Positions 23,138 to 64,000 of a stretch of 64,000 nt of DNA are shown in pieces. The DNA lies in NCBI GenBank assembly GCA_043765195.1, contig JAYUJN010000040.1:22734-86733 (forward strand), in the 5' to 3' direction. This DNA is from Bacteroidota bacterium (GTDB lineage Bacteria > Bacteroidota > Bacteroidia > UBA7662 > JAYUJN01). The position numbers were made by a program, and so were the translations under genes. The notes below the pieces were generated by a model, which had not been told where the DNA came from, did not search any database, and was given only the letters and a program-made list of their open reading frames with translations. Position 1 is the first letter of the stretch. Each line of letters begins with the position of its first letter.

Positions 23138-23138
23138 A

Positions 23139-24482
23139 ATGGAACAAAACAACGAAGTAGAAAAGTACAAACGCTACCAGTTTTCGTCGATAGAGCAGGT
23201 AAGTACGCCCAAAACTTTGGTGTACGGCGCACGGGTTTCGATAGGCATCGCCTTGTTTTTTTTGGGTATCTTGTTTGTTCCGTGGCAGCAAAACATCAAG
23301 GGGTTTGGGTCTTTGACCATACTTAGCCCCCAAGACCGCCCGCAAGATTTGCAAAGCCCGATACCTGGCAGGATAGAAAAGTGGTTTGTGCCAGAGGGCA
23401 GTTTGGTGAAAAAAGGCGATACGATTGTGTTTATTTCGGAGGTAAAAGACGAGTATTTCGACCCCAAAATTACGTTTAGGTTAGATGAGCAAATTGTAGC
23501 CAAAAGAAATGGTTTGCAGGCGATTGACAACAAAATAAATGCTTTGAACAGCCAAATATCGGCACTAAATGATGGGTTGAAACTGACTGTGGCTAAGACG
23601 AAAAACAAGGTAAAACAGGTGAGTTTTAAGCTAAAATCGGATAGTATAGAGTATGTAGCCGCCCAAACCGACAATAAAATAGCCAAGGAACAGGTGCTGC
23701 GCCAAGAAAAACTGTACGAGCAGGGTTTGAAATCGCTTACGGAGCTGGAAAGTCGGCGTTTGAAGTTTCAGGAGAGTACCGCCAAACTTATTTCTACCGA
23801 AAACAAGCTGCTTACGGCACGCAACGAACTGATAAATGCCCGCATAGAGCTTGGGTCGGTGGAGGCGGAATATAGGGACAAAATTGCGAAATCGGAGTCG
23901 GATAAAAGCTCGAGTTTTGCGTATAAATACGAAATAGAAACCGAAATAAGCAAGCTGCAAAACAAGCTGAGTAGCGTGGAAACACGCCAAGATTTGTATT
24001 GTGTAAAAGCACCGCAAACGGGTTATTTGATAAAAGCACACAAGCAAGGCATCGGCGAAAACATCAAAGAGGGCGAGGCGATAGCGACTATTTTGCCTCA
24101 AAATGGCGAAAAAGCCGTGGAACTTTACGTAAAAGCAATGGATTTGCCGCTTTTGAAGCCTGGCATAAAAGTGCGGTTGGAGTTTGACGGGTTTCCTGCG
24201 TTGCAGTTTTCGGGCTGGAACGGCATTTCGGTGGGAACTTTTGGCGGAAAAATAGCCGTGATAGACAATGTACAAACCGAACCCTCGAAGTACCGCATAC
24301 TTGTAATACCCGACCCCGACGACCAAGCCTGGCCCGAGCAATTGCGGGTGGGTTCGGGCAGCTATGGCTGGGCGATGCTCAACGATGTACCCGTTTGGCG
24401 TGAGCTGTGGCGGCAGCTAAACGGTTTCCCGCCCGACCTACCGAATGTGCCGAGCGCAGGTGGTAGTAAAAAAAAGAGTTAA
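23139..24482 (+). CDS. HlyD family membrane-fusion (periplasmic adaptor) protein
   Basis: N-terminal TM helix, a biotinyl-like lipoyl half-domain (IEKWFVPEGSLVKKGDTIVFI) and a long coiled coil. Starts 2 nt after the ABC gene stop. Confidence 0.8.
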   Translation: MEQNNEVEKYKRYQFSSIEQVSTPKTLVYGARVSIGIALFFLGILFVPWQQNIKGFGSLTILSPQDRPQDLQSPIPGRIEKWFVPEGSLVKKGDTIVFISEVKDEYFDPKITFRLDEQIVAKRNGLQAIDNKINALNSQISALNDGLKLTVAKTKNKVKQVSFKLKSDSIEYVAAQTDNKIAKEQVLRQEKLYEQGLKSLTELESRRLKFQESTAKLISTENKLLTARNELINARIELGSVEAEYRDKIAKSESDKSSSFAYKYEIETEISKLQNKLSSVETRQDLYCVKAPQTGYLIKAHKQGIGENIKEGEAIATILPQNGEKAVELYVKAMDLPLLKPGIKVRLEFDGFPALQFSGWNGISVGTFGGKIAVIDNVQTEPSKYRILVIPDPDDQAWPEQLRVGSGSYGWAMLNDVPVWRELWRQLNGFPPDLPNVPSAGGSKKKS

Positions 24483-24501
24483 AAAAACACAGCCAATTAG
24501 T

Positions 24502-25911
24502 ATGAAACATATTTTAACGATGGTTTTTGTGGTGTTTTGGGGCAATGGCGCATTTACGCAGAGCCTAAAAACGGATAGCAGTTATTTTTTGAGCCTCACG
24601 GAGCTGCACCAAATTATTTTGGTGGAGCACCCGATGGTGCAGCGGGCTAACCTTTTGCCGAAACAAGCCCAAAGCCTGATAATGATGGCAAAAGGGAGTT
24701 TTGACCCCGTAGTGGCGGGCGATTTTTCGCAAAAGACGTTTAAAAGCAAAACTTATTGGACTTTTTCTGATGCTTATTTTAAAATTCCGACCTGGATTGG
24801 CGCAGATATAAAGCTGAATTGGCAACAAAATAGCGGCGATTTTTTGGACCAAAGCGACCAAACGCCCCGCACGGGGCTGAACTACGCAGGCATTGCGCTA
24901 CCCATAGGCAGGGGGCTGCTCATAGACCAGCGCAGAGCCAGCCTGATGCAGGCGAAATCTTTTTTGGAGCAAAACCAAGCCGAGCAAGCCGCCATGGTAA
25001 ACAAAATTATGCTGCAAGCCAGCAAAGATTTTGCGGTTTGGTACACGGCGTACAAAAGTTTTTTGTTTATAAACGATGCCTATATTTTGGCAAACCAGCG
25101 TGCCGACCAAGTGAAACAAAGGGTGGTGCTGGGCGATGCCGCCGCCATAGACAGCGTGGAAGCCGTGGTGGCTGCCCAGCAGCGGCTGCTGGAGCGCACC
25201 GCAGCGCAGTTGGAGTTGTATTTGAACAATGTAAATATATCCAATTATTTGTGGAAAAACAACCAACCCATTCAGATTGAGCCGAGCGTTTACCCGATTT
25301 TTAACACCGAAAACACCAGTGCGCTGCTGCCCGATTCGTTGCTGAATGCCATTAAATTTGCGAGGGAAACGCACCCCAACCTGCAAAAAATTAGGTTTAA
25401 AGGCGAAATTTTAGAAACAGAACGCCGTTTAGCCCGAGAAATGCTAAAACCACAGCTCAACCTCGAGGCAGGAATTTTGCAGCAAAACCCCGTTTTTTCG
25501 CAAACGATTACCAGTAATTTTATACAAAACAACTACAAACTGGGCGCATCTGCCTACATTCCGATTTTTTTGCGCAAGGAGCGTGGCAAGCTCAACCTGA
25601 GTAATTTTAAAATAAAAGAGAACGATTTGGAGCTTTCGTTTGGCTACCAAACCATACAAAACGACCTAAGAATGGCGTTTGAGCAGATAAAAACACTGGA
25701 AGCGCAACTGCAACTTGCCCAGCGCATGATAACCAACTACGAAACGCTGCGCAACGGCGAAAAAATAAGGTTTGACAACGGCGAAAGCTCTGTTTTTTTG
25801 ATTAATGCCCGAGAAGCCAAGCTCTTAGAAGCAGAAGTAAAATACGCCGAACTGCAGGGAAAACTCCAAAAAGCCATCGCCGAGTGGCGGTTTGCACTTG
25901 GCGGTTTTTAA
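24502..25911 (+). CDS. TolC family outer-membrane efflux protein
   Basis: Signal peptide and two tandem TolC-type repeat halves with coiled-coil/alpha-barrel periodicity. Third gene of the ABC-HlyD-TolC operon. Confidence 0.7.
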   Translation: MKHILTMVFVVFWGNGAFTQSLKTDSSYFLSLTELHQIILVEHPMVQRANLLPKQAQSLIMMAKGSFDPVVAGDFSQKTFKSKTYWTFSDAYFKIPTWIGADIKLNWQQNSGDFLDQSDQTPRTGLNYAGIALPIGRGLLIDQRRASLMQAKSFLEQNQAEQAAMVNKIMLQASKDFAVWYTAYKSFLFINDAYILANQRADQVKQRVVLGDAAAIDSVEAVVAAQQRLLERTAAQLELYLNNVNISNYLWKNNQPIQIEPSVYPIFNTENTSALLPDSLLNAIKFARETHPNLQKIRFKGEILETERRLAREMLKPQLNLEAGILQQNPVFSQTITSNFIQNNYKLGASAYIPIFLRKERGKLNLSNFKIKENDLELSFGYQTIQNDLRMAFEQIKTLEAQLQLAQRMITNYETLRNGEKIRFDNGESSVFLINAREAKLLEAEVKYAELQGKLQKAIAEWRFALGGF

Positions 25912-46796: not shown

Positions 46797-49700
46797 ATGA
46801 TTAAATACTACAAAACCCTACTCATTATTGCCTCTGTTTTGGCTGCTACGGCTGCCAATGCGCAATTCAACCCCGCCCTCATCGACACCGTTTACTACGA
46901 AAACTTTGAGGCTGCCACCACCCAAACAAGTACATCTGGCGCACCCGCTTGGGTTGTGGACAATATTTACTCCAAATCGGGCTTGAAATCCTACAAAGGT
47001 AAGGCGCAGCAAACCTCTGTGAGTTATTTGGAAACAAATGCCTTTTCTACGGTAAACAAGTTCCAAGTTTGGCTGGATTTTGAACACATCAGCAAAATTT
47101 TGTTTTCGAACGGAGGAACGTTAGAAATTTCGGGCGACAACGGTGCTACCTGGACGCAAGTGAGCGTGGGTACTACTGGAAACACAAAATACCTAAACGC
47201 TGGTGCGCCAGGCGTGGGTAGCGCCACTGGTTTTAGTGGTGTGGCTACCAACGAGTTCAGCGAATCGGCGTACAGCGCATGGTTGGCTGGCAACCCGAGC
47301 AGCCCCACCAATGCGTGGTGGAAGCACGAGCGCTTCGATATTTCGACGCTGGCGGGCAACAAAGCCGCCGTAAAAATCCGCTTTAAATTAGACGACAAAG
47401 GCTCAGGACCGGGTCCGGGCGCAGGTCGCTACGGCTGGTTGGTAGATGACATTCGCATTACACGTGCGCCCTCGGAGCTAGACCCACCCGTGATTACGCT
47501 CACCGCACCGCTTTTAACTGGTTTGCAATTCAGCGCAGGTCCTTTTACAATAAAAGCCTCCATACAAGATGCCTCGAGCGTGCGCAACGCCTGGGTAATG
47601 TTTACAAAAACAGGCAGCCCCGCCCTGGACTCCGTACTAATGACCCGCACAGGGCGCACTGGCTTAAACTATTTGTACGAAGGCATACTACAAAACCCAA
47701 AAATCATAGACGGCGACGAACTTTGCTATTTCGTAAAAGCGGTGGATAGCTCCATTAGTTTTAACGTAGGGCGTGGACCGCTGGCTACGGCGGCAGTAAC
47801 CTGCAATACCTTTAAGGCAAGCGGCGCACCCACCATTACGCAAGTTACACAACTTACTGGCAACCAGTTTTTTACTGGACCATTTGCCATTTCTGCCAAC
47901 ATTGTAGATGCCTCGGGCATAGCCAACGCCAGCGTTAAATTTACGATAAACGGCGGTGCTTTGCAAAGCGCAGCCATGTCGCCTATTTTTGCAGGGAGCA
48001 ATGTTTTTCAGGGCAATATGCCCATATTTAGCATGGGCGATGTGGTGTGTTACTACATAGAAGCCGCCGATGCCTCCGTGCGCAACAACTTGGCTCGTAG
48101 CCCGCTTGCCACCGCCAACCCAAGCTGCATTACGTTTACGGTAGTAGGCGGCGGGCAGCTCATACCTTATACAGATACCTTCGATGGTGCGAACAACTGG
48201 GTAGCCAGCCCCGCCACAGGCGGCTGGGAACTGGGTACGCCCACCAAAACGTTTTTAAACAACACACGCAGCGGCGCAAATGCGTGGACCACAAGGCTAA
48301 CTGGAAACTACGTAGCCTCCGCCACCAATACGCTCACTTCGCCCGTTTTCTTTTTTAATGGCAACCACAACGCCACATTTGTTTTTTGGCAAAAAAGGAA
48401 AATAGACCCAGGCACAGCAGTGCCTACCTCGCTCACCAGCAACGGCGATGCGTTTTACATAGAATACACCCAAGACGTAAACAACGCCAACCCAGCATGG
48501 GCAACGCTCGGCACAGGCACAGCCACCGACCAGTTTGCACAGCTAAACTGGTACAACCGCAGCAACATATCGGCACCCATAAACAAACCAGGCTGGAACG
48601 CCCAAACCACAGGCTGGCAACGCTGCGAATACAAACTTACGGCACTAAACAATGTGGGCAACATCAAGTTCAGGTTTGTATTTAGGTCGAACACCACGGG
48701 GCAAGACGAGGGCGTTTCGATAGACGACTTAGCCATAAACCTACCTTTTGCAAACGATGCGGGCGCAACCCAAATTATAAGTGCCAGAGACGAAGTAGTG
48801 GCTGGCGACTCGATAGGCGTTTCCATCAAGTTCAAAAACTTTGGGGCTACACCCATAGCCACTGTGCCTGTAAAATACCTCATAAATGGCAACATCACGC
48901 AGAGCTTCAACGCCACGGTAAACCTTACCCCAGGCGCAAATATAACGCTTACTGCGGCGCAACTACCCAAGTTTTTAGCACCTGCGTACAATTTTAGCTT
49001 TTGTGCCGTAACAGCACTTGGCGGCGATGGCGATGCCCTAAACGACACGGCTTGCTTCAACTTTTATGGCGTGCCTACCATTGCGCCTACATTCAGCGAC
49101 AACTTTGATGTAGCCCAACCCAACAACCCGTGGAGGCTAACCGCAGCAACAAACAATGTAATAGATTGGCAAAAAGGCGCACCGACAAAAACCGTGATTA
49201 ATGCGGCAGCATCGGCACCAAATGCCTACGTTACCAAGCTTGCGGGCAACTACACGGCAAACAACATTTCTTGGCTTACCACGCCACTGATAGATTTTTC
49301 GGGTAAGGTAAACTGCTACCTTTCCTTCAAACAACTGCGCCGTTTAGCCAACGGCTCGGTAGCCAGAATACAATACTCGGTGGACAACGGTGCTACGTGG
49401 CTACCACTTTCGGGCGGTACAAACGGATTTAACTGGTTCAACAGCGGCAACGGATTTAGCGGAAACTCGGCTGGAACTGGCTACATAATGAGCGAGTTTT
49501 ACCTAAATCAGTTTGACAACAACACCGCCAAGGTGAAATTTAGGGTAGAAATGAGCGCAAGCTCGGCAGTAGGCGAAGGAATAGCGATAGACGATTTTAA
49601 AATAAAACTACCCGAACCCTACGACGTGGGCGTAACCGCAATAGATACACCACTGAGCAACCCGCCGCTACCCGCTGTGGTGCAAGTAAGGGTAAAAGTG

Positions 49701-52118
49701 AAAAACTTCGGTGGCACTACCGTAACTTCTATACCACTCGCCTACTCATTCAACGGCAACGAGCAACCAGCATCTAACTTTGTGTGGACTGGCAGCCTTG
49801 CACCAGGCGCAACTACGGTGATAAATATGCCCACCTACCCATCGGTAATTGTGGGGCAATACAACCTGCGTGTATATACAAAAGGCAGCACCGACGGCAG
49901 GCTCTACAACGATACGCTGGGCAGAACGGTAACTGGGCTATCCAGGTTCGAAGCGAAAGTAAGCAAAATAAGCAACCCATTTGCGACCAAATGCTACCCC
50001 GCTGGCTTGGACAACCCCATACGATTTGAGCTAAGAAACGCTGGTCATACCGCCATCAACACCTTTACGGCTAATTATAAATTAGACAACGGTGCGCTGG
50101 TTACACAAGTATTTTCGGGCGTGAACATACCACGTGACTCCACGAGGGCATTTACATTTACGACCAAAGCCGATATTTCTTTGGGCGCACACAGCCTAAA
50201 AATACACATCAATAGAATTGCGCCTTGGGATACCATACAAGTAAACAGCGATACGCTAAAAGTGGCATTTATAGCCATACAGCCTTTGCCGCTAAACTAC
50301 GAAAACAATTTTGATAGAACCTGCGCCAACAACCAACTGTACAGCGTGTTGTGTACCGAACTTGCGCCCGCTTCGCTTATTAATTGTGAACTACTGGCAA
50401 ACAACAACGGTTTGATACCTGGCTACGGCTTTGAAATGGGCGTAACAGGCGGCGGCGTTTGGAATGCCGCTACCATAAACAACATTTGGAATCCGACTGT
50501 AAACCCCGACTTTTTGGGTAGGGCAACGCTTACTTTTAGAAGCACCTACCAAGAAAACCTGCACATTCAGTTTGATTTGGCGCAGTTAGCTGTGGGCGGC
50601 AACAACTCTTATTTTAGGGTTTTGTGCAATGGCGTGCCAGTACCCGATACGATGTTTAACACCGTTTCGAGGCAGGGCGATTTGGCAAACAGTGGTGTTT
50701 TTCAGGCATTGAACTACGACCTAAGCAACTACTACGCACCTGGCGACCCCATTATTATAGAGCTGCAATCTAAGTGCGAAAACCGCTCGTTTGGTGGTGG
50801 CACGGCGGCAAGCAACGGCAATTTCATAGACAATGTGCTGGTTTACAACCAAATACCAATTACGGTTTCACCCATTGACATTCAAACAAATCCACCGCTA
50901 TTGCTACCTACCCTGCCTATAACCGTAAAAACGGTGATAAAAAACACGGGTGCTACCAAGCTGAATACCATTAGGGCATCGCTCTATTTGAACGGAACTG
51001 TGGTGCAAGCCAACCAGTTGGTTTCGCCGCTGAATAACCTGGCTTTCAACAGAACTACCTCGTTTAACTTTACGAACACCATAAGTCCAGTGGCGGGCGT
51101 AAATGAGGTTTGCGTAATTACTTCGTTGCCAAACAACCAAAACGATATGTTTGTGGACGACGATACGACCTGCAGCACCATTGTGGCGTTTGACCAAAAA
51201 GCACAGTTTCCGTATTGCAATAATTTTGATGCCAACGACCCACTTTGGGTAACGCTTAACTCAAAAACCTACAAAAACAAAGGAAATATTTGGCAATTGG
51301 GTGCGCCCAACAAGCCATTTATAAACGGTGCTTTTAGCGGCACACGTAGCTGGGCTACCGACTTAGATAGCCTATACAGCGATACGTTGCAAAGTGCGCT
51401 ATACACGCCCGTTTTTGTGATGCAAGCCAACGATTGCTACCTCATTAAGTTCCAACACAAATACCAAATAGACAGCACTGGCGACGGTGGAACGATAGAA
51501 TATACCATAGACAATGGCGTAACGTGGCACACCATAGGCAATGTGGGCGATGCCGACTGGTACAACCAAGGCAATATTTCTACGCTGATAGTACCCGCAG
51601 TAGGTACGCAAGAGCGCATAAGGGGCAAGGGCTGGACGGGCAACTCGAACGGCTGGGTGCCAGCACGCAGGGATTTTAAACTGCCGACCACGGTTACAGG
51701 GCTGCAAAATGTGATATTCAGGTTTAGGTTTGCGAGCGACTTTACGAGCAATCCGCTTGCCATAAACAGAGAAGGCTGGGCAGTAGATGACTTTTGCGTA
51801 GAGCCGTTTATCGGCAACTGTAAGCCACTTGCCACCGACGACGAAAACATGGATTTGGGCTTGGAGCTAAATGCGGCTTACCCCAACCCTACCAGCGAGT
51901 GGTGCAAAATAAACTATGTACTACCCACCGCAGGCAAAGTAAGCCTGAGCCTAAAAGATGTTTTGGGTAAAACGATTCAGAACCATGCGTTTGGCAAGCA
52001 AGATGCGGGCAACCACAATTTCAATTTGGATTTGAGCAACTTAGAGTCTGGTATTTATTTTTATACCGTGGATTTTGAAGGTATGCAGCTAACCCAAAAA
52101 ATTACCTTGATTAAATAA
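46797..52118 (+). CDS. large T9SS-secreted multi-domain surface protein (1773 aa)
   Basis: Signal peptide and at least four repeated beta-sandwich modules, each ending in a G(W/V/I)x(V/I)DD(I/L/F)x(I/V) motif. These are MAM/CARDB-like. The C-terminal 80 aa form a T9SS sorting domain (LNAAYPNPTSEWCKINYVLP...GIYFYTV). Confidence 0.7.
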   Translation: MIKYYKTLLIIASVLAATAANAQFNPALIDTVYYENFEAATTQTSTSGAPAWVVDNIYSKSGLKSYKGKAQQTSVSYLETNAFSTVNKFQVWLDFEHISKILFSNGGTLEISGDNGATWTQVSVGTTGNTKYLNAGAPGVGSATGFSGVATNEFSESAYSAWLAGNPSSPTNAWWKHERFDISTLAGNKAAVKIRFKLDDKGSGPGPGAGRYGWLVDDIRITRAPSELDPPVITLTAPLLTGLQFSAGPFTIKASIQDASSVRNAWVMFTKTGSPALDSVLMTRTGRTGLNYLYEGILQNPKIIDGDELCYFVKAVDSSISFNVGRGPLATAAVTCNTFKASGAPTITQVTQLTGNQFFTGPFAISANIVDASGIANASVKFTINGGALQSAAMSPIFAGSNVFQGNMPIFSMGDVVCYYIEAADASVRNNLARSPLATANPSCITFTVVGGGQLIPYTDTFDGANNWVASPATGGWELGTPTKTFLNNTRSGANAWTTRLTGNYVASATNTLTSPVFFFNGNHNATFVFWQKRKIDPGTAVPTSLTSNGDAFYIEYTQDVNNANPAWATLGTGTATDQFAQLNWYNRSNISAPINKPGWNAQTTGWQRCEYKLTALNNVGNIKFRFVFRSNTTGQDEGVSIDDLAINLPFANDAGATQIISARDEVVAGDSIGVSIKFKNFGATPIATVPVKYLINGNITQSFNATVNLTPGANITLTAAQLPKFLAPAYNFSFCAVTALGGDGDALNDTACFNFYGVPTIAPTFSDNFDVAQPNNPWRLTAATNNVIDWQKGAPTKTVINAAASAPNAYVTKLAGNYTANNISWLTTPLIDFSGKVNCYLSFKQLRRLANGSVARIQYSVDNGATWLPLSGGTNGFNWFNSGNGFSGNSAGTGYIMSEFYLNQFDNNTAKVKFRVEMSASSAVGEGIAIDDFKIKLPEPYDVGVTAIDTPLSNPPLPAVVQVRVKVKNFGGTTVTSIPLAYSFNGNEQPASNFVWTGSLAPGATTVINMPTYPSVIVGQYNLRVYTKGSTDGRLYNDTLGRTVTGLSRFEAKVSKISNPFATKCYPAGLDNPIRFELRNAGHTAINTFTANYKLDNGALVTQVFSGVNIPRDSTRAFTFTTKADISLGAHSLKIHINRIAPWDTIQVNSDTLKVAFIAIQPLPLNYENNFDRTCANNQLYSVLCTELAPASLINCELLANNNGLIPGYGFEMGVTGGGVWNAATINNIWNPTVNPDFLGRATLTFRSTYQENLHIQFDLAQLAVGGNNSYFRVLCNGVPVPDTMFNTVSRQGDLANSGVFQALNYDLSNYYAPGDPIIIELQSKCENRSFGGGTAASNGNFIDNVLVYNQIPITVSPIDIQTNPPLLLPTLPITVKTVIKNTGATKLNTIRASLYLNGTVVQANQLVSPLNNLAFNRTTSFNFTNTISPVAGVNEVCVITSLPNNQNDMFVDDDTTCSTIVAFDQKAQFPYCNNFDANDPLWVTLNSKTYKNKGNIWQLGAPNKPFINGAFSGTRSWATDLDSLYSDTLQSALYTPVFVMQANDCYLIKFQHKYQIDSTGDGGTIEYTIDNGVTWHTIGNVGDADWYNQGNISTLIVPAVGTQERIRGKGWTGNSNGWVPARRDFKLPTTVTGLQNVIFRFRFASDFTSNPLAINREGWAVDDFCVEPFIGNCKPLATDDENMDLGLELNAAYPNPTSEWCKINYVLPTAGKVSLSLKDVLGKTIQNHAFGKQDAGNHNFNLDLSNLESGIYFYTVDFEGMQLTQKITLIK

Positions 52119-54443: not shown

Positions 54444-56138
54444 TCAAAATTTGTAGGTAACGCCGACCAGCGCACTGATACCAAAAGTGGGGTAATTGTA
54501 AAGCCTAAAATAATTGCTGGCGGCGAGGTTGTTGAAATTTGCGAAGAAAGTAAGGTCGTTTTTGAGCCTGTATTCCGCCGTCAAATTTAAGTCCACAACG
54601 CCTTTTAGGGTGTTGGTGCTGCCTGTTTTACTCAAATATTTTATGCCGCTATACCCAAAAATTTCGGCACCAAAGTATAGTTTTTGGTCATAGTTGTACC
54701 TAACACTGAGGTTACTGCTAAGGTTTGGCTGCATATAAGGCTGGCGCAGGGTGCTATCCAGCTTGAATATTTTGTAACCGCCTATCAAAATTATTTCTAA
54801 GTTTGCATTTGGGTTGTACTGGGTCTCGAAGGCAATTTCTGTGATTGTACCAGAGTTTGCGTACACAGGGTTGAGCTTGCGAAAATCGGTGGTATCGTTT
54901 TGGTAAAACAGTAGGTTTCGGGCTTCTTTTACGCCAATTTGCGCTTTGTAGCCAATGTTTTCTATGATTTTGCCATTGATGCCTCCAAAAATATGGGTTT
55001 TTATGAGCGTATTTTTAATGTCTAAATTGTTTTGTAGAAACGGATTGCGCCTCGTTAGGTTGTCAAAAGTGTTTTGCACAAACCCGCCATCTATGCCCAC
55101 AAAAGCGGTTAAGCCCTGCTCTGGCACGACGTTAAAACCGATTTTTGCGAATGGAAACACATGAAACGAGCTGCTATCTGTAACAAATAGCGCATTTTTT
55201 TGGAGCTTTTGGTAGGTTGTATTGATGCCCACTTCAAAACCAAAACGCTCTTTTTGCATACCAAATTTTGGGCTTAAAACGAACAATGAGGTATTGTTTT
55301 GGGCGGATATAAAGCCAGTATTGGGTTTGTATTTTCGGTAATCGTATATAATGGGTATGGTTATGTGGCTTTCGCCAAAGCCTGCGAACAAGTTGGCGGC
55401 GATGTTAAAATTTTGCTCCGATTCCTGATATTTGTTTGTGGTAAGGTGGTAGCTCGGGGTAAGGGTGTAGCTCGGCACGCCTTTTTTGGTGGGCGTACCC
55501 TGGAGTTTGGCAAAAACGCCGACCCTATTGAGGGTTTGGGTGGATTGTTCGGTGGTAAAATTGGTGTCTAAGGGGTTGTAACCATAAAAATTTCGGTTGT
55601 TGCGCTCGTAGTTTACGCCCGCCCCTACGCTCATTTGTTTGAAAATACGCTTGCCGCTCAACCCCAATTTGTTGTCGCTGTACGCCATATTTTTATAGCT
55701 TTGGTCGGTTTGAACATTTTTTTCTATTGTGCCTCGAGAAGAAATATGGTGCGCATTTGCCTCCAATTCGTACTTAGAATTTCTACCAGTTTGGTAATGC
55801 GCATCAAAAAGAGGCGTGAGGTAGTTGCCAAAACCAGCCCTAATAAAAACATTTTTCAGCGGATTGGGCGTTTCCGATTTGGGTTTCATTGCCTGAATTG
55901 GCTCCACGGTAAAATCGGTGTTTATGCTGCGGGTTACGGCGGCGTAGTTCATTTTGGGTCGGTCGTCGTTGGTGGCATCGGGCGCAGCTTGCGGGTTGGT
56001 GGGTATTTTTAGGCTCTCTATGAGCTTGGGCTGATATGTTTTTACCACTTTTATGGGGTCGCTGGTAAAATCACGCTGGGCGTGGGCTACGGTGGCGTAC
56101 ACGAGCAGACAAGAGAGTAAAATGGATTTTTTGTTCAT
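54444..56138 (-). CDS. outer-membrane beta-barrel protein, possibly a PorP/SprF-like T9SS cargo partner
   Basis: Signal peptide (LLVYATVAHAQ), amphipathic beta-strand periodicity throughout and a C-terminal aromatic residue (GVTYKF). It is encoded immediately downstream of the giant T9SS adhesin on the same strand. Confidence 0.45.
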   Translation of the reverse strand: MNKKSILLSCLLVYATVAHAQRDFTSDPIKVVKTYQPKLIESLKIPTNPQAAPDATNDDRPKMNYAAVTRSINTDFTVEPIQAMKPKSETPNPLKNVFIRAGFGNYLTPLFDAHYQTGRNSKYELEANAHHISSRGTIEKNVQTDQSYKNMAYSDNKLGLSGKRIFKQMSVGAGVNYERNNRNFYGYNPLDTNFTTEQSTQTLNRVGVFAKLQGTPTKKGVPSYTLTPSYHLTTNKYQESEQNFNIAANLFAGFGESHITIPIIYDYRKYKPNTGFISAQNNTSLFVLSPKFGMQKERFGFEVGINTTYQKLQKNALFVTDSSSFHVFPFAKIGFNVVPEQGLTAFVGIDGGFVQNTFDNLTRRNPFLQNNLDIKNTLIKTHIFGGINGKIIENIGYKAQIGVKEARNLLFYQNDTTDFRKLNPVYANSGTITEIAFETQYNPNANLEIILIGGYKIFKLDSTLRQPYMQPNLSSNLSVRYNYDQKLYFGAEIFGYSGIKYLSKTGSTNTLKGVVDLNLTAEYRLKNDLTFFANFNNLAASNYFRLYNYPTFGISALVGVTYKF

Positions 56139-56254: not shown

Positions 56255-56300
56255 ACCCACAAAAAAGCCCACGGCGAACCCGATAGGGTTCGCCGTGGGC
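56255..56300 (-). terminator. rho-independent terminator (minus strand)
   Basis: 15-bp stem gcccacggcgaaccc-gata-gggttcgccgtgggc. On the minus strand it is followed by a T-rich run. Lies 26 nt downstream of the adhesin stop. Confidence 0.6.
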
Positions 56301-56325
56301 TACACTTAATTTGAATACTCTATAA

Positions 56326-59300
56326 TTATTTAGAAATAATTAAACGCTGTATTTTCTCACTCTCGCCTTGTACTACTTTTAGGGTATAGTTGCCAGATTG
56401 GAACTGACGTACATCTATTTGGGTACGTACTTCCACACCTCGTTCCAAGTCCATCTCAGAAGCATACACTACTTTGCCCCTGGCATCGTACATTACTATG
56501 CTCGCCTCACCTGCATCTCCTTTTAGTACTACATTAAACACTGTGTTGCTCGGGTTCGGATACACTTTCAAAGTAAGCTCTTTGGTTATGTCCGCCAAAA
56601 CTACTTTTATCCAATTGCCTCTCAACACCTCGCTCTTGCCATCAAAGTCAAACTGTACTACTCGGTAGTAGCTCTCGCCTGTGTATGGTTCGTAGTCTAT
56701 CACACCGTATTTCTGGCGTATGTTCGTTGTGCCGAAGCCTTTTTTGGTAGCTATCAACTCTGGTGTTTCGCCGATGTTGCGTACTCGCTCCACCTCAAAC
56801 CTGTCGTTGTTTATCTCGCTGGCTGTACTCCAATCTACATACACGTGCCTATCTACAGCCCTCACGCTCAAATCTATCAGCGTTACTGGCGTAGGTGTGG
56901 CGTTGAACAAACCTACATCTATCGTAGTGTTGTTTTCGCCGCTACCCAATACGATTGGGTTTATGCGACCCGTTGCTGGGTTGGCATCACTGTCTTTGGT
57001 TGGGTCTGTGCCTATTTGTTGTGGGCTGTAATCAAAACCTGATGGCTTGCCAAACTCTACAATATAGGGTTTGCCTGGCATCAATCCGCTGAACACATAA
57101 TTGCCGTTGGCATCTGTGGTCGTGGTGGCTATCGTCGCTCCATTGCCGTCAAGCAATTTCACTACAATACCCGATACACCTGGTTCTCCTGGGTCTTGCA
57201 CGCCGTCTTTGTCCGTGTCGTTAAACACCTTGTCGCCTAAGCTCGCAGGTATGTAAATACCCATGTCCACCGTCAAGTTGCTTGCACCTGAACCCAGGGT
57301 ATATGTACCCGTTTTGCCAGTAGCCACGTCGGCATCGCTGTCTTTGGTGTCATCGCTGCCAGCATCTTTTGTGGTTATCACGCTGCCTGCTGGCTTGGTG
57401 AATATTACATAGTAGCTGCCTGGGGTTAAGTTGTCAAACAAATAATTACCATTGACATCTGTAACCTTCGTGCTTATTACCCCATTCGTAGTGGCATCGT
57501 ATAGCGTAGCTGTTACACCAGCAATACCTTGCTCACCCACATCTTGCACGCCATTGGCGTTCTTATCCATAAATACTTTATCACCTAATTTAGCAGGTAT
57601 ATATATACCCATATCTACGGTCAAATTGTTTTCGCCCGCTGCAAGGGTATATGTACCCGTTTTTCCAGTAGTTACGTCGGCATCGCTGTCTTTGGTATCA
57701 TCGCCACCAGCATCTTTGGTCGTTATTATGCTACCCGCTGGCTTGGTAAATATTACATAGTAGCTTCCTGGGGTAAGGTTGTCAAACAAATAGTTGCCAT
57801 TGGCATCTGTAACCTTGGTGCTTACTACCGCATTTGTGGTGGCATCGTATAGCGTGGCTGTTACACCTGCTACACCTGGCTCACCCGCATCTTGCACGCC
57901 GTTGGCATTGCTGTCGGTAAATACTTTATCACCTAATTTAGCAAGTTTCACAAAACCTGCATCTATGTCCGTGCGTACCTGACCTTGACCCAATACGATT
58001 GGCTGTGTGCGACCGTTCGTGCCAGCATCGCTGTCTTTCGTGCCATCGCCACCTGCGCCACCTATTGTGCCTATATAGCCCGTTGGTGTGGTAAAGCCTA
58101 CGGTGTATGTACCTGCTGGCAAGCCATTAAATACATATTCTCCGTTTGGTCCTGTAACAACACTCGCTATCGGGTTGCCGCTTGCATCGAACAACGTTAC
58201 CGTTACACCTGCAATGCCTGGCTCTCCTGGGTCTTGTACACCATCGCCGTCTCTGTCTTCCCATACAAAATTACCAATAGAACCTGGTACATAAATACCT
58301 GCATCTACCGTCGGATTGTATTGTCCACCTACCAAGGTGTAAGCAACTGTTTTACCAGTAACTGGGTCTGCATCACTGTCTGTACCATCAGCACCTATGT
58401 CTTTTTTGGTAAATATCGCATTTGCAGGCAAAGTGCTAAATCCTACGCTGTACGTGCCAGGCTGCAAGTTCACAAATGTGTATGCGCCGTTTTGGTCGGT
58501 TATCGTAGTAGATATTGGCGTACCTGCGCTGTTAAACAACGTTACTGTTACACCTGGTACACCCACTTCTGTGGCTTCTTGTATGCCATTGGCATTCACA
58601 TCGTTCCATACAAAGTTACCCAAACCAGCAAGCGGTGTATTGCTTTTCACACCTGCATCAAGGTCTCTGTTGTTCTGACCAGCAGCCAGCGTTACAGTTG
58701 GCGTTCTGCCAGTTGTAGCATCTGCATCGCTGTCTTTGGTATCGTCTGTGCCAGCATCTTTTGTGGTAAATACAAATCCTTGCGGCAAGTTGTTAAATCC
58801 TACACTGTACGTGCCAGGCGTTAAGTTGGGGAACAAATAGAACCCGTTTACGTCCGTAACCGTACTACCTACTGCGTTGCCAGCTCCGTCATACAACGTT
58901 ACTGATACGCCCTCTACACCAGGTTCGTTTGCATCTTGTACGCCATCGCCATTCAAATCATTGAATACAAAGTCGCCAAGGCTCGCCAACGCCGCATTCG
59001 GTTTGTTGATGCCCGCATCTAAGGTTTGGTTGTACTCACCCGTTACCAAGGTAACTTGTTGGGTTTCGCCAGTTGTAGTGCTTGCATCGCTGTCTTTGGT
59101 GTCGTCTGTTCCACTGTTTGATGGGCTAAATGAATAGCCAGTTGGTAAATTGCGGAATTTTACGCTGTACGTGCCAGGGGCTAATCCATTAAATATGTAT
59201 TCACCCAATGCGTCTGTTATCGTTGTGGCTATTACATTGCCCGATACGTCTAACAAATCTACTACCACGCCTTGTACACCTACTTCACCTGCATCTTGTA

Positions 59301-62300
59301 CACCGTTTGTGTTGGTATCGTACCATACAAAATTGCCCAAGCTCGCATTATTTGGCGGAGGAGTAAGGTAAATACCCGCATCTACTGTTGGGTTAAACTG
59401 ACCGCTTGTAAGCGTATAGTTGCCAGTTCTGCCTGTTTGTACGTCTGCATCGCTATCTTTGGTGTCATTTCCACCCAAATCTTTGCCCGTAAATGTATAA
59501 CCAATCGGCAATGTGAAGCCTACGCTGTACGTGCCTGGTACTAAATTATTGAACGAGTAAAAGCCTGTGGCATCGGTAATTGTGGTCGCCACTGGGCTTC
59601 CGTTTACGTCAAACAAGGTTACGGTTACACCCGATACACCTGTTTCGCCAGCGTCTTGTACGCCGTCTTTGTTGCTATCTATCCACACATAATTACCTAA
59701 ACCTGCATTCGGAGTTGAGTACAAACCTGCATCTATTGTGGTGTTGTTTTCACCAGATGCCAAAGTTACTGGGGCAGAGCGTCCACTTGATGTGTTGGCG
59801 TTGCTGTCTTTGGTTGGGTCTGTGCCTTGGCTCGCAGGGCTAAATGTAAGTCCGTTCGGACGGATAAATTCTACTGTGTAAGTGCCAGGAGCTAAGTTTG
59901 TAAAACTATATGCACCCAAAGCGTCGGTGGTCGTTGTGCCTACGGTGTTGCCACCAGCATCAAGTAAATTCACCGTTACGCCTACGATACCTGCCTCGCC
60001 TGCATCTTGTATGCCGTTTTGGTTGGCATCTGCAAATACAAAGTTACCAAGTGCGGCTGGTTGGAAAAATCCAAAGTCCACTGTTAGGTTTGAGTTGGCA
60101 TCTGGTACGCCCGCTGGGTTGTTGCTTGGGTTTTCGCCCGTTGGCTCGCCGCCTACTGTAAGGGCTACCGTGCCGCTGCGGGTTTCACCTGCTACGGTTG
60201 TTACGCCATTGTCGTTGTTATCGCCGTTGGTATTTGGGTTCGCCTCCTGACCTGCGCCTGTGCTGCTGTTGAAGCCCAATGGGTTTACAACGCCTACAAT
60301 GTAGCTGCCAGGTTTTAGGTTGTTGAACAAATAATTGCCGTTGGCATCTGTGGTGGTGGTATTGATAGCCGCTCCGTCAGGTTGTCCATCGTTGTTGGCA
60401 TCGGCATATAATTTTACCGTTGCGCCTGCTATTGGTGCTTCGCCTGCATCTTTCAAACCGTTATTGTTGGCATCTAACCACACTTGGTTACCCAAGTTCA
60501 ATGGCTGATAAAAACCTGCATCTACGTCTGTTTTTGCATCGCCACTGTTTAAAGTTACAGCATTGCTACGTCCAGTTGTGGTGTTGGCATCACTGTCTTT
60601 GGTTGGGTCTGTGCCTGTACCTTGTGGTGATGAGGTAAAGTTCGCTGGTTTCACAAATTCTACGATGTAACTACCTGGTGCCAAGTTTGCAAACAAATAG
60701 TTGCCGTTGGCATCGGTTGTGGTTGTAACTGGCTGACCGTTTGCACCCAATACTGGGTTGCCTGCTGCATCAAGTAATTTTACAATTACACCTGCTATGC
60801 CTGGCTCTGTTGGGTCTTGTACGCCGTCTTGGTTGTCATCACGGAATACTTTATCGCCCAAACTCGCTGGAACGTAAAATCCGAAGTCCACTGTTAGGTT
60901 GCTGCTGTTGTCGGCAGTACCTGCTGGGTTGTTGCTTGGGTTTTCGCCAGTTGGCTCTGTTCCTGCTGCAAGACTTACTACACCGCTGCGGGTTTCACCT
61001 GCTGTGGTTGTTACACCGTTGTCGTTGTTGTCGCCGTTGGTATTCGGATTTGCCTCCTGACCTGCACCTGTGCTACTCACATAAGTACCGCCTGGGGTTA
61101 CACCTACCACATAATCACCTGCTCTTAAGCCTGTGAATATATACAAACCGTTTGCATCGGTGGTAGTTGTAGCCAAAACCGTAGTGCCTGCTGCATTATA
61201 CAACTTAACCGTTGCGCCTGCTATCGGCAATTCACTGGCATCTTTTATGCCGTTGTTGTTGGTATCTATCCATACTTGGTTACCCAAGTTGAGTGGTTTT
61301 GTAAATCCAGCATCAATCGTGTTGTCCGTTTGTCCGCTACCCAATGTGATGGGTTGAGTACGTCCAGTTGTAACGCTTGCGTTGCTGTCCTTGGTTGGGT
61401 CTGTGCCTGCATTCGGGTTTGATGGGTCGAAGCCACTTGGTTTCACAAACTCTACAATGTATGTGCCTGGTACTACATCAAAGAAGTAATTACCATTTGC
61501 ATCGGTTACAGTGGTAACTGGCTGACCAGTTGGTCCCAATACTGGGTTGCCTGCACCATCAAGTAATTTTACAATTACGCCTGCTATGCCTGACTCGCCT
61601 GCATCTTGTATGCCATCGCCGTTTAAATCATCAAATACTTTGTCGCCTATGCGGGCTGGTTTATAGAAACCAAAATCCACTGTTAGGTTGCTGCTGTTGT
61701 CGGCTATGGTTGAACCATTATTGCTCGGGTTTTCACCAGTTGGCTCTGTTCCCGCTGCAAGGCTTACTACACCGCTACGGGTTTCGCCTGCTGTGGTTGT
61801 TACACCGTTGTCGTTGTTGTCGCCATTGGTATTCGGGTTCGCCTCCTGACCTGCACCTGTGCTACTCACAAAAGTGCTGCCTGGGGTTACGCCCACTACA
61901 TAATCACCTGGTTTTAGGTTGTCAAACAAGTATAAACCATTGGCATCAGTGGTGGTGGTAGCCAAAACCGTAGTGCCTGCGGCATTGTACAACTTAACCG
62001 TTGCACCTGCTATGATTGGCTCGCCAGCGTCTTTTACGCCGTTGTTGTTCGTATCTTCCCACACTTGGTTACCCAAGTTTACTGGTTTGTAAAAACCTGC
62101 ATCAAGCGTTTGATTGCTCTGACCTGATGTAAGTGTTACGGTTTGTGTTTTACCAGTTGTTACGTCTGCATCGCTGTCTAATTCATCATCGTTACCAGCA
62201 TTGGCAATGGTTGGCGTATAGCCAGCAGGGTTTGCAAACCCAACTGAATAAGTACCTGGTGCCAAGTTTGTAAATTGGTAGAAACCAAGTGCATCGGTGG

Positions 62301-64000
62301 TTGTAGTACCTATGCTCGCACCTGCTGCATCAAAAAGGGTTACGGTTACGCCCGCAAGTCCATTTTCGCCTACTTCTTGTACGCCGTTGGCATTTTTATC
62401 TTCCCATACGTAATTGCCCAAGGTAGCAGGGGCATAAAACCCGAAGTCCACCGTTAAGTTGCTATTGTTGTCGGCTGTGCCTGCTGGGTTGTTGCTTGGG
62501 TTTTCGCCCGTTGGCTCTGTACCTACTGCAAGGGTTACTACACCGCTGCGGGTTTCGCCTGCTGCTGTGGTTACACCGTTGTCGTTGTTGTCGCCGTTGG
62601 TATTTGGATTCGCCTCCTGACCTGCACCTGTGCTACTTACAAAAGTACCACCTGGCGTTACGCCTACTACATAATCGCCTGCGGTTAAGCCTGTAAATAT
62701 GTACAAACCGTTGGCATCGGTAGTCGTAGTAGCCAAAACCGTAGTGCCTGCTGCATTGTACAATTTAACGGTTGCACCTGCTATGATTGGCTCGCCAGCA
62801 TCTTTCACACCGTTGTTGTTGGTGTCTATCCATACTTGGTTACCCAAGTTCATTAGTGGTGTTATGGCAATGTCGGAAATATCGGAGTCATCTTGGTCGC
62901 CGTTTCCACCGTTTATTTCATCGTCGGTTACAGTACCGTCGTTGTTTGGGTCGGTGTCGGGCGTAGAATCTACGTCGTTGCCGCTGTCGTTAGAAATTTC
63001 GGCTGTGTTGCGCAAAGATGTACCTGCGTTTGCATTTACAGTCAAAACGATGTTTACGCTCTGAGACGCACCTGCGGCTATGCTTGCAATGGTTGTAGTG
63101 GCGTTGCTGCCACTTGCTGTCCATGCTGCGTTGTCGGCTGGTACAAATGTAAATCCTGCTGGAATGTAGTCCGTTACTTGGGTATTGGTTGCTACTACGT
63201 TTCCTTGGTTAAATACCTCTACTTTAAAGGTTACTTTGCTACCAATTACGATTGGCGTAGGTGCAGAAGCAACGGTTTTGCGTAGTGCAAGGTCAAAGCG
63301 TATGCTGTTGAAACCAAAGTCGTAGGTATGGTTGTTTTCGCCATAACCGCCTGTGGTAAGTGCTTTTATTACGTTTGAGCCGCTGGTTGTGCCATCGTTG
63401 TCTATGGCATCGTTTGAGCCTTGGTCGGCTGGGCTAAGGGTTAAGCCAGCAAGTGCCGTGGCGTTTGCGCCTGCGGTTGGTATGCGTATTTCGTAGTTTG
63501 TGTTTGGTGCCAGACCCGTAAAAATGTAATTACCGTTGGCATCAGTGATTTTTGTAGCCACTAAGTTGCCATTTTGGTATAGTTGCACGGTTACGCCTGC
63601 TCTGCCTGTTTCGCCAGCATCTTGTATGCCGTCGCCGTCGGTATCGTTCCATACACGGTTACCTATTTCTATCGGAGCCAAGCCACACATTACTTCTATG
63701 TCGCCCACACCGTTTGCCTTACTAAACGTAGAAGCATCAAAAGATTCATATAACTCATACTGAGTACCTATTTGTCCGTTTGTATTAGACATGTGGGCTA
63801 TACCACCCGTTCTTATCCTACCACCTGGGTCCATGATTGTGGTTAGCACTTCACCAGAACCTGGTAACGTGGCTATACCACCTTGGGCAGATTCTTGGTG
63901 CGCAGGAAATGGGTCTTCTTGGTAGTAAAATTCACCACCGCCTATGCCTTGTCCGTTGTTTGCGCCTGATGTAGTAGTTGTAATGCCGTTGCTTGTGATA
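56326..64000 (-). CDS. giant T9SS-secreted repetitive adhesin built from SdrD B-like/Cna-B-type calcium-binding repeats (5' end beyond the window)
   Basis: More than 2500 aa. The reading frame stays open to the window edge and the ORF-track start is a GTG. Contains at least 20 ~110-aa repeats, each with a DxNxDGxxDxxE-like motif and a TDANGxYxF core (e.g. LGNQVWIDTNNNGVKDAGEPIIAGATVKLY...TTTDANGLYIF). C-terminal T9SS sorting domain (LKVYPNPSNTVFNVVL...GNYTLKVV). Confidence 0.8.
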   Translation of the reverse strand, partial: ITSNGITTTTSGANNGQGIGGGEFYYQEDPFPAHQESAQGGIATLPGSGEVLTTIMDPGGRIRTGGIAHMSNTNGQIGTQYELYESFDASTFSKANGVGDIEVMCGLAPIEIGNRVWNDTDGDGIQDAGETGRAGVTVQLYQNGNLVATKITDANGNYIFTGLAPNTNYEIRIPTAGANATALAGLTLSPADQGSNDAIDNDGTTSGSNVIKALTTGGYGENNHTYDFGFNSIRFDLALRKTVASAPTPIVIGSKVTFKVEVFNQGNVVATNTQVTDYIPAGFTFVPADNAAWTASGSNATTTIASIAAGASQSVNIVLTVNANAGTSLRNTAEISNDSGNDVDSTPDTDPNNDGTVTDDEINGGNGDQDDSDISDIAITPLMNLGNQVWIDTNNNGVKDAGEPIIAGATVKLYNAAGTTVLATTTTDANGLYIFTGLTAGDYVVGVTPGGTFVSSTGAGQEANPNTNGDNNDNGVTTAAGETRSGVVTLAVGTEPTGENPSNNPAGTADNNSNLTVDFGFYAPATLGNYVWEDKNANGVQEVGENGLAGVTVTLFDAAGASIGTTTTDALGFYQFTNLAPGTYSVGFANPAGYTPTIANAGNDDELDSDADVTTGKTQTVTLTSGQSNQTLDAGFYKPVNLGNQVWEDTNNNGVKDAGEPIIAGATVKLYNAAGTTVLATTTTDANGLYLFDNLKPGDYVVGVTPGSTFVSSTGAGQEANPNTNGDNNDNGVTTTAGETRSGVVSLAAGTEPTGENPSNNGSTIADNSSNLTVDFGFYKPARIGDKVFDDLNGDGIQDAGESGIAGVIVKLLDGAGNPVLGPTGQPVTTVTDANGNYFFDVVPGTYIVEFVKPSGFDPSNPNAGTDPTKDSNASVTTGRTQPITLGSGQTDNTIDAGFTKPLNLGNQVWIDTNNNGIKDASELPIAGATVKLYNAAGTTVLATTTTDANGLYIFTGLRAGDYVVGVTPGGTYVSSTGAGQEANPNTNGDNNDNGVTTTAGETRSGVVSLAAGTEPTGENPSNNPAGTADNSSNLTVDFGFYVPASLGDKVFRDDNQDGVQDPTEPGIAGVIVKLLDAAGNPVLGANGQPVTTTTDANGNYLFANLAPGSYIVEFVKPANFTSSPQGTGTDPTKDSDANTTTGRSNAVTLNSGDAKTDVDAGFYQPLNLGNQVWLDANNNGLKDAGEAPIAGATVKLYADANNDGQPDGAAINTTTTDANGNYLFNNLKPGSYIVGVVNPLGFNSSTGAGQEANPNTNGDNNDNGVTTVAGETRSGTVALTVGGEPTGENPSNNPAGVPDANSNLTVDFGFFQPAALGNFVFADANQNGIQDAGEAGIVGVTVNLLDAGGNTVGTTTTDALGAYSFTNLAPGTYTVEFIRPNGLTFSPASQGTDPTKDSNANTSSGRSAPVTLASGENNTTIDAGLYSTPNAGLGNYVWIDSNKDGVQDAGETGVSGVTVTLFDVNGSPVATTITDATGFYSFNNLVPGTYSVGFTLPIGYTFTGKDLGGNDTKDSDADVQTGRTGNYTLTSGQFNPTVDAGIYLTPPPNNASLGNFVWYDTNTNGVQDAGEVGVQGVVVDLLDVSGNVIATTITDALGEYIFNGLAPGTYSVKFRNLPTGYSFSPSNSGTDDTKDSDASTTTGETQQVTLVTGEYNQTLDAGINKPNAALASLGDFVFNDLNGDGVQDANEPGVEGVSVTLYDGAGNAVGSTVTDVNGFYLFPNLTPGTYSVGFNNLPQGFVFTTKDAGTDDTKDSDADATTGRTPTVTLAAGQNNRDLDAGVKSNTPLAGLGNFVWNDVNANGIQEATEVGVPGVTVTLFNSAGTPISTTITDQNGAYTFVNLQPGTYSVGFSTLPANAIFTKKDIGADGTDSDADPVTGKTVAYTLVGGQYNPTVDAGIYVPGSIGNFVWEDRDGDGVQDPGEPGIAGVTVTLFDASGNPIASVVTGPNGEYVFNGLPAGTYTVGFTTPTGYIGTIGGAGGDGTKDSDAGTNGRTQPIVLGQGQVRTDIDAGFVKLAKLGDKVFTDSNANGVQDAGEPGVAGVTATLYDATTNAVVSTKVTDANGNYLFDNLTPGSYYVIFTKPAGSIITTKDAGGDDTKDSDADVTTGKTGTYTLAAGENNLTVDMGIYIPAKLGDKVFMDKNANGVQDVGEQGIAGVTATLYDATTNGVISTKVTDVNGNYLFDNLTPGSYYVIFTKPAGSVITTKDAGSDDTKDSDADVATGKTGTYTLGSGASNLTVDMGIYIPASLGDKVFNDTDKDGVQDPGEPGVSGIVVKLLDGNGATIATTTTDANGNYVFSGLMPGKPYIVEFGKPSGFDYSPQQIGTDPTKDSDANPATGRINPIVLGSGENNTTIDVGLFNATPTPVTLIDLSVRAVDRHVYVDWSTASEINNDRFEVERVRNIGETPELIATKKGFGTTNIRQKYGVIDYEPYTGESYYRVVQFDFDGKSEVLRGNWIKVVLADITKELTLKVYPNPSNTVFNVVLKGDAGEASIVMYDARGKVVYASEMDLERGVEVRTQIDVRQFQSGNYTLKVVQGESEKIQRLIISK

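Follow-up and report, generated by a model that had tools for sequence, protein, structure and literature searches.

A predicted giant surface protein built of diverged, apparently recombining SdrD_B modules in a Bacteroidota genome

The stretch analysed here, 64,000 nucleotides of Bacteroidota contig JAYUJN010000040.1 (hereafter the window), ends in a single very large minus-strand gene made of tandem repeats. We consider it likely that this gene encodes an intact, functional, very large cell-surface protein of an uncultured Bacteroidota bacterium, with a calcium-binding stalk of SdrD-B modules and an array whose modules recombine. From position 63999 to the stop codon at 56326-56328 the frame translates into 2557 codons with 0 internal stops. 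The open reading frame (ORF) call begins at an internal GTG (63849), and translation from 63999 is also stop-free; we took plus-strand ORFs within the gene (e.g. 57985-58824) to be antisense shadows of this frame. An earlier, sequence-only reading of this DNA had stated that the gene continues past the window edge, and this proved right: the orthologue on a related metagenome contig, L002, has its start 1460 nt beyond that edge and opens with a putative signal peptide. If the window allele shares this 5' end, ~487 codons are missing and the full protein is predicted to be ~3044 aa long with 18 modules.

The surface assignment was supported by domain content. Pfam recognised 17 SdrD_B (PF17210) stretches in the window protein, above the gathering score and with 1774.8 bits in total, and a motif parse that defined the module boundaries also gave 17 (U1-U17 from the N-terminus; Table 1). 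The EF-hand-like loop DxNxNGxxDxxE is present in 17/17 modules, and TDxxGxY and D[ST][DN] are each present in 16/17. In a phmmer search against the PDB, the protein matched SdrD B domains (10ps, 4jdz; E = 5e-46 to 1e-20), and B domains of staphylococcal SdrD and UafA are homologues of the modules (E down to 5e-46). At the C-terminus, PF18962 (Por_Secre_tail) scored 64.7 bits against a cutoff of 27 over residues 2479-2555 of 2557, and TIGR04183, scored on the L002 orthologue, reached 73.9 bits against a cutoff of 23; by sequence, the protein would be type A cargo of the type IX secretion system (T9SS). The type B C-terminal domain (TIGR04131) was not found, an NCBIfam scan of the full orthologues giving type A only, and a SprB-type gliding adhesin, which would be T9SS type B cargo, was rejected on this result. 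The sequence-only reading was right to describe a T9SS protein longer than 2500 aa and composed of SdrD-B-like repeats; its count of at least 20 repeats was too high, since Pfam and the motif parse agree and the L002 orthologue adds one module upstream.

The repeats are regular in spacing and diverged in sequence. A periodicity of ~771-810 bp, close to the ~780-810 bp noted earlier, links 59.94-62.85 kb (self-BLAST E 0 to 1e-139; repeat search families D2 and D3). It corresponds to four pairs between 59701 and 62847, at spacings of 771, 789 and 810 bp, each made of a long module of 142-148 aa carrying two conserved insertions and a short module of 115-122 aa. The strings quoted in the earlier reading do recur, in 3-4 copies each at the positions given against 0 expected in shuffles, but its description of the repeats as near-identical was an overestimate. 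In codon alignments, three long modules were pairwise 82.6-86.4% identical and the fourth ~70% identical to the others, while short modules were pairwise 57-70% identical. The 1.4-kb super-repeat alignment was 75.8% identical, with the best 420-bp stretches at 85-88% (self-BLAST), and the most conserved ~200-bp core, which had been called almost identical, measured 68-91% between copies. Near-identical tandem repeats would be at least ~95% identical within the allele; the best pair reached 86.4% at a synonymous divergence (dS) of 0.6. The best module pairs had dS of 0.60-0.70 and a ratio of non-synonymous to synonymous divergence (dN/dS) of 0.08-0.13, and module pairs more widely had dS of 0.6-0.7 or higher and dN/dS of 0.1-0.3. 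The modules are old duplicates under purifying selection: with dS of 0.6-0.7 and a longest exact repeat of 38 nt in the gene, there is no sign of ongoing homogenisation, and assembly collapse of the window allele, previously thought probable here, is therefore unlikely. Self-BLAST also showed a tandem pair of 348 bp at 57241-57936 that the earlier reading did not mention.

The conserved DNA core encodes the two long-module insertions, AGQEANPNTNGDNNDNG... and TEPTGENPSNN..., which are invariant in the protein. In the long modules U2, U4, U6 and U8 these two Asn/Gly/Asp/Pro-rich insertions (AGQEANPNTNGD..., EPTGENPSNNPAGTADNNS) are the most conserved part of the repeat in both protein and DNA. 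An AlphaFold2 (AF2) model of one pair folded both modules confidently and gave the two insertions a predicted local distance difference test (pLDDT) score of <50. The insertions could be extra calcium-binding or ligand loops.

To compare alleles, we used three (L001, L002 and L003) of the five metagenome contigs that carry an exact copy of the 564-aa protein encoded next to the giant gene. Their flanks are near-perfect matches to the window (99.9-100% identical), with 0 mismatches over 50001-57000 in L003, and against each of the three contigs 66-75 mismatches are concentrated in 57000-57903. The L002 orthologue is 2719 aa long and matches window positions 64000-61967 (2034 nt) with 0 mismatches. 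Its upstream 1460 nt encode a signal peptide, judged by eye and ending before Q (MNPIVQKPMNGTGIKRLLSLLAFTLLSVIAHA, then Q; …SVIAHA, then Q), one more SdrD_B module and a head of ~460 aa without a Pfam family. Among these closely related assembled contigs the array differs in copy number by a 789-bp pair and by a 1764-bp block of five modules; the length polymorphism between strains that had been anticipated was therefore seen, in a comparison made entirely between metagenome assemblies.

A trace of recombination lies in U5. Comparison of the window with L002 gave 0 mismatches over 61902-61472 in register 0 and, likewise, none over 61470-60644 when the register was shifted by +789. Window module 5 is identical to L002 module 5 for its first 179 nt and from there on to L002 module 7, apart from a single private base at the junction (61471); at the crossover, the two L002 modules have 56 nt exactly in common. 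This exact chimera is the mark of an unequal crossover; by our own estimate, the segregation of 12 and 14 differences into opposite halves would occur by chance with a probability of ~1e-8. On the most parsimonious account, the window lineage would have lost one 789-bp pair by unequal crossover between modules 93% identical, because the extra long module of L002 differs by at least 10% from each of the window modules. Of the two processes invoked by the sequence-only reading, unequal crossing-over is borne out by this cross-contig junction, while ongoing homogenising conversion is contradicted by the dS of 0.6-0.7.

Smaller mosaic tracts accompany the crossover. The 17 differences from L002 in the 64-nt patch in U4 interrupt ~2.9 kb in which identity is otherwise perfect, and have the look of a short tract of recombination or conversion. 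In U16, the 25 sites that differ from the L002 counterpart all fall in the first 137 nt, and many match the neighbouring module, a conversion-like pattern. The segment 60861-59701 diverges from L002 by ~3% between flanks at 0%; 33 codons differ, 30 of them synonymously and 3 non-synonymously. The history of this segment differs from that of its identical flanks, which suggests that it was imported as an allelic segment by homologous recombination between strains, and the synonymous bias shows that the protein is under selection. Given this bias and the open frame, we rejected the reading of the gene as a pseudogene.

Larger differences were also found. The window allele keeps the five modules U10-U14 (588 codons); L001, L002 and L003 lack them, in frame, and have in their place a hybrid module that is identical in the three contigs. 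U10 is the closest match to the first ~87 nt of this hybrid (~80% identical) and U15 to the remainder (~93%). In L001 one 789-bp pair is duplicated almost perfectly (98-100% identity), and the longest internal exact repeat is accordingly 626 nt, compared to 65 nt in L002 and 38 nt in the window.

These patterns could have arisen in other ways. Under concerted evolution, the repeats would be kept near-identical by ongoing conversion or unequal exchange, and the locus would be of the fast contingency type, variable in length and prone to collapse. Module gain, module loss and patchy mosaicism between alleles are in line with this, as is the duplicated pair of L001 with its long exact repeat. For the window allele it is largely refuted by best pairs at 83-86% with dS of 0.6-0.7 and by the short longest exact repeat. 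Moreover, corresponding modules are 96-100% identical across alleles, far above neighbouring modules within one allele, which is the opposite of its expectation, and the conserved ~170-bp core is accounted for by invariant amino acids. We regard concerted evolution as very unlikely. A separate concern is that the differences between the window and the three contigs are artefacts of short-read metagenome assembly, that is, collapsed or chimeric paths over repeats or paralogues. All the sequences are assemblies of unspecified read support; L001 ends in a paralogue, so this contig does break at repeats; L001 also contains the 626-nt exact repeat; and at the 56-nt stretch shared by L002 modules 5 and 7 a small-k graph could jump. 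Against this, three samples (assemblies ERZ27314325, ERZ27314326 and ERZ28574377) yielded the same hybrid module and junction in place of U10-U14, each in its own contig, and the naming of the contigs points to two assemblers. The longest exact repeats of the window and L002 are only 38 and 65 nt, and the contig name k141_... indicates a final k of 141 for L002. Nor is the window a collapsed version of L002, since it has the 17-difference patch, the private base at 61471, the 33 mostly synonymous codon differences and five extra modules; in addition, each indel is in frame and in module register. Assembly error as the source of these differences thus appears quite unlikely, and we favour recombination between diverged modules.

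From these features we propose how the protein would work. A Sec signal peptide, as seen in the L002 orthologue, would carry it over the inner membrane, and the type A C-terminal domain would route it through the T9SS. By analogy with characterised type A cargo, this domain would then be removed and the protein tethered C-terminally to the outer-membrane surface. The 17 SdrD-B-type beta-sandwich modules and the DUF11 domain would form a calcium-stiffened stalk that reaches tens of nanometres; the B domains of staphylococci take up three Ca2+ ions, and their calcium-loaded form is extremely mechanostable (PMC6232131). The stalk would display an N-terminal head far from the cell, where it may bind a ligand. 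Structure prediction points to a beta-propeller-like head in the window and L002 allele: in the AF2 model (pLDDT 89, predicted template modelling score (pTM) 0.90) of a homologue that shares 47% identity with the L002 head, SdrD_B modules flank a beta-propeller-like domain. Foldseek matches of this model include 6/7-bladed beta-propellers; among the matches are 3hfq, 1jof, 3fgb and 1l0q, at target TM-scores of ~0.4-0.5. At the DNA level, the repeats are simply the coding sequence of the modules, kept similar by purifying selection on the protein, strongest in the long-module insertions, and not by homogenisation. The diverged modules would remain substrates for homologous recombination and so give rise to pair loss, the five-module difference, mosaic patches and exchange of heads.

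Whether such a protein is an adhesin is a separate question, and the label used in the sequence-only reading is drawn from architecture. The protein could instead be a T9SS surface or secreted protein of another kind, such as an S-layer-like coat, a motility-track protein or the carrier of an enzymatic head. The head has no Pfam family, and its fold matches include lactonase-like and 6-phosphogluconolactonase-like enzyme propellers besides binding propellers; relatives, which are annotated only generically as SdrD B-like, do not speak for such a role. The sorting domain is type A, not the type B typical of SprB-like motility adhesins, and a head on a long stalk of calcium-binding B-type modules is a known adhesin layout (SdrD; PMC6232131). 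We therefore consider a non-adhesive role rather unlikely and keep a ligand-binding surface protein as the preferred reading.

Several points weigh against this reading of the protein and its history. The case for secretion, anchoring, Ca2+ binding and adhesion is drawn from homology, and the 5' end, signal peptide and head of the window allele, which lie outside the window, are taken from L002. No T9SS machinery genes were seen within the 64-kb window; indirect support for such machinery in the same genome comes from a second Por_Secre_tail protein (46797-52118) and from paralogues upstream in L001 and L002. Among the sequences compared, no donor within 9-14 substitutions was found for the U4 patch, in either its window or its L002 version. 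The five-module indel is in register, lacks a clean junction and is not a recent clean event. The comparison sequences are all metagenome assemblies, and the structural differences could in principle be artefacts. Searches for homologues returned best database relatives only ~45-53% identical (longest matches 672, 872 and 1434 aa, none far exceeding its query in length) and no further alleles; the window-specific five-module block therefore has no independent confirmation there.

The closest structural parallel is with the B-repeats of staphylococcal Sdr proteins (SdrD, SdrG, UafA; PF17210; 4JDZ, 10PS, 3IRP), which share the module fold and family with EF-hand-like calcium loops, and in which the tandem modules likewise sit between a binding region and an anchor. 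Unlike these proteins, the window protein would be Gram-negative T9SS type A cargo and not LPXTG-sorted, lacks both an N2-N3 'dock, lock and latch' A region and a Ser-Asp repeat, has 17-18 modules compared to 2-5, and holds two extra conserved insertions in half of the modules of its 59.7-62.85 kb block. Membership of the MSCRAMM Sdr adhesins (SdrC/D/E, NF012181 / NF000535) was rejected on scores of 903 bits against a cutoff of 2500 (MSCRAMM_SdrD) and 744 against 1700, only the B-repeat part being matched. Also close are generic SdrD B-like or T9SS type A proteins of Bacteroidota (Saprospiraceae, Chitinophagaceae, Spirosoma), which share the PF17210 arrays, PF01345 and PF18962 and also have an unannotated ~450-aa head beside SdrD_B modules; they differ in that the closest are ~45-53% identical to the window protein and carry generic annotation. 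Proteins with the same domains are very numerous in Bacteroidota and beyond (1933 matches at E <=1e-30 among the candidates scored), and we know of no characterised member of this group. A full-text literature search that combined SdrD with T9SS or type IX secretion found no paper.

Two other classes of surface protein are instructive. In repeat-number-variable proteins such as the group B streptococcal alpha C protein, SasG of S. aureus and Aap of S. epidermidis, and the yeast Flo and Als proteins, recombination between intragenic repeats gains and loses modules in frame and creates length differences between strains, as appears to be the case here. Their repeats are usually above 90-100% identical in DNA and change at high frequency. 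In contrast, the recombining modules of the window gene are only 83-93% identical, and events should therefore be much rarer. Giant repeats-in-toxin (RTX) adhesins of the MpIBP and LapA/LapF class are rigidified by Ca2+, consist of bacterial immunoglobulin-like (BIg) modules and are exported by the type I secretion system (T1SS). Like the predicted stalk, they use a long extender of calcium-binding Ig-like modules to present a ligand-binding region far from the cell; the BIg modules, the T1SS and the opposite polarity of anchoring set them apart from the window protein. The gene is thus an ordinary member of a common protein class, and, as biology, the kind of variation that would be expected on a common theme. 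Environmental Bacteroidota abound in large T9SS surface proteins built of repeats, almost none of which is characterised, and this locus offers a base-resolved example of how one such gene changes among locally identical strains, by loss of a pair, presence or absence of a five-module block and a difference in head. It also teaches that repeat periodicity in such genes implies neither near-identity nor mis-assembly, and that strain-level comparison of surface proteins needs module-aware alignment.

The difference in head concerns L001. In the same chromosomal slot, this contig has a 2355-aa gene (L001 1597-8664) with a choice-of-anchor A / pAdhesive_15 head and SprB-like repeats of ~78 aa. The 5' 5 kb of this gene is unlike that of the window gene and is joined to the 3' 2.2 kb that the two have in common, and homology between L001 and L002 starts within the conserved core of a long module, at ~L001 6487. 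An upstream paralogue contributes its 3' end to L001 1-782; this stretch is 94.9% identical to window 57020-56237 and covers the last module, spacer, sorting domain and terminator. Paralogues are also present upstream of the orthologue in L002, and such tandem paralogues probably break the L001 assembly at the contig end. Recombination could be concentrated in the slot that precedes the 564-aa gene, a hot spot at which strains would swap whole ligand-binding heads and lengthen or shorten the stalk, a form of cassette-like surface variation. Tandem paralogous T9SS genes that share a 95-100% identical 3' module, made up of the last stalk units, spacer, sorting domain and terminator, together with conserved long-module cores, could provide the substrate, and the beta-propeller head of the window and L002 could then be exchanged for the choice-of-anchor-A head with SprB-like repeats of L001. 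Pressure from phages or grazers possibly drives such variation in a free-living Bacteroidota lineage. We regard this head-swapping scheme as speculative and unlikely.

Table 1. Features of the giant surface-protein gene (window positions; all on the minus strand)
Feature	Position	Strand	Basis or remark
Giant surface protein coding sequence	56329..64000	-	5' end beyond window edge; translation, L002 match
N-terminal head, C-terminal ~111 residues	63667..63999	-	no Pfam family; remainder of head outside window
SdrD_B module U1	63292..63666	-	PF17210, module parse
DUF11/CLIPPER (PF01345) beta-sandwich, residues 236-350	62950..63294	-	Pfam E = 2.2e-16
Four super-repeats, one long and one short module each (U2-U9)	59701..62847	-	repeat search, self-BLAST, module parse
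U2	62847-62422	-	long (long/short alternating, U2-U9)
U3	62421-62077	-	short
U4	62076-61651	-	long
64-nt patch in U4	61903..61966	-	17 differences from L002; in ~2.9 kb of otherwise perfect identity
U5	61650-61288	-	short
Crossover interval inside U5	61436..61491	-	upstream, L002 module 5; downstream, L002 module 7, 789-bp shift
U6	61287-60862	-	long
U7	60861-60496	-	short
U8	60495-60052	-	long
U9	60051-59701	-	short
Five short SdrD_B modules, U10-U14	57937..59700	-	1764 bp, 588 codons
Tandem pair U15/U16	57241..57936	-	348 bp each, 84.5% identical; Tandem Repeats Finder (TRF), self-BLAST
SdrD_B module U17	56893..57240	-	Pfam, module parse
Spacer of ~110 aa, last module to sorting domain	56563..56892	-	no Pfam family
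T9SS type A C-terminal sorting domain, residues 2479-2555	56329..56562	-	PF18962 E = 9.9e-18
Intrinsic-terminator-like hairpin	56266..56301	-	16-bp stem, 12 G-C pairs, then T run; 25 nt past stop

The surroundings of the gene are ordinary chromosomal genes, including those for SMC, Dxs, an aminotransferase, succinyl-CoA ligase and a TonB-dependent receptor; in a scan of a genome collection, the best relatives of Dxs came from assorted Bacteroidota at <=74% identity, which points to an uncultured Bacteroidota lineage as the source. Directly downstream of the giant gene in the window, L001, L002 and L003 lies the gene for the 564-aa protein (54444-56138, minus strand), which has a signal peptide and a C-terminus ending in ...GVTYKF and is possibly an outer-membrane beta-barrel. 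The terminator-like hairpin stands 25 nt past the stop of the giant gene, and the 564-aa gene, on the same strand, is therefore probably transcribed separately. Neither Pfam nor NCBIfam matched this neighbour, and the genome-collection and JGI metagenome scans returned no relatives of it. The second T9SS type A cargo protein (46797-52118, plus strand; 1773 aa) shows weak CARDB and Reelin-subrepeat matches together with its Por_Secre_tail domain and is conserved in L001 and L003. Elsewhere in the window, at 20978-25911 on the plus strand, a 719-aa ATP-binding cassette (ABC) transporter resembles permease-ATPases of NHLP/bacteriocin export, with scores below the equivalog cutoffs; it is followed within this interval by two co-oriented ORFs of 447 and 488 aa, and the three may form a peptide-export system.

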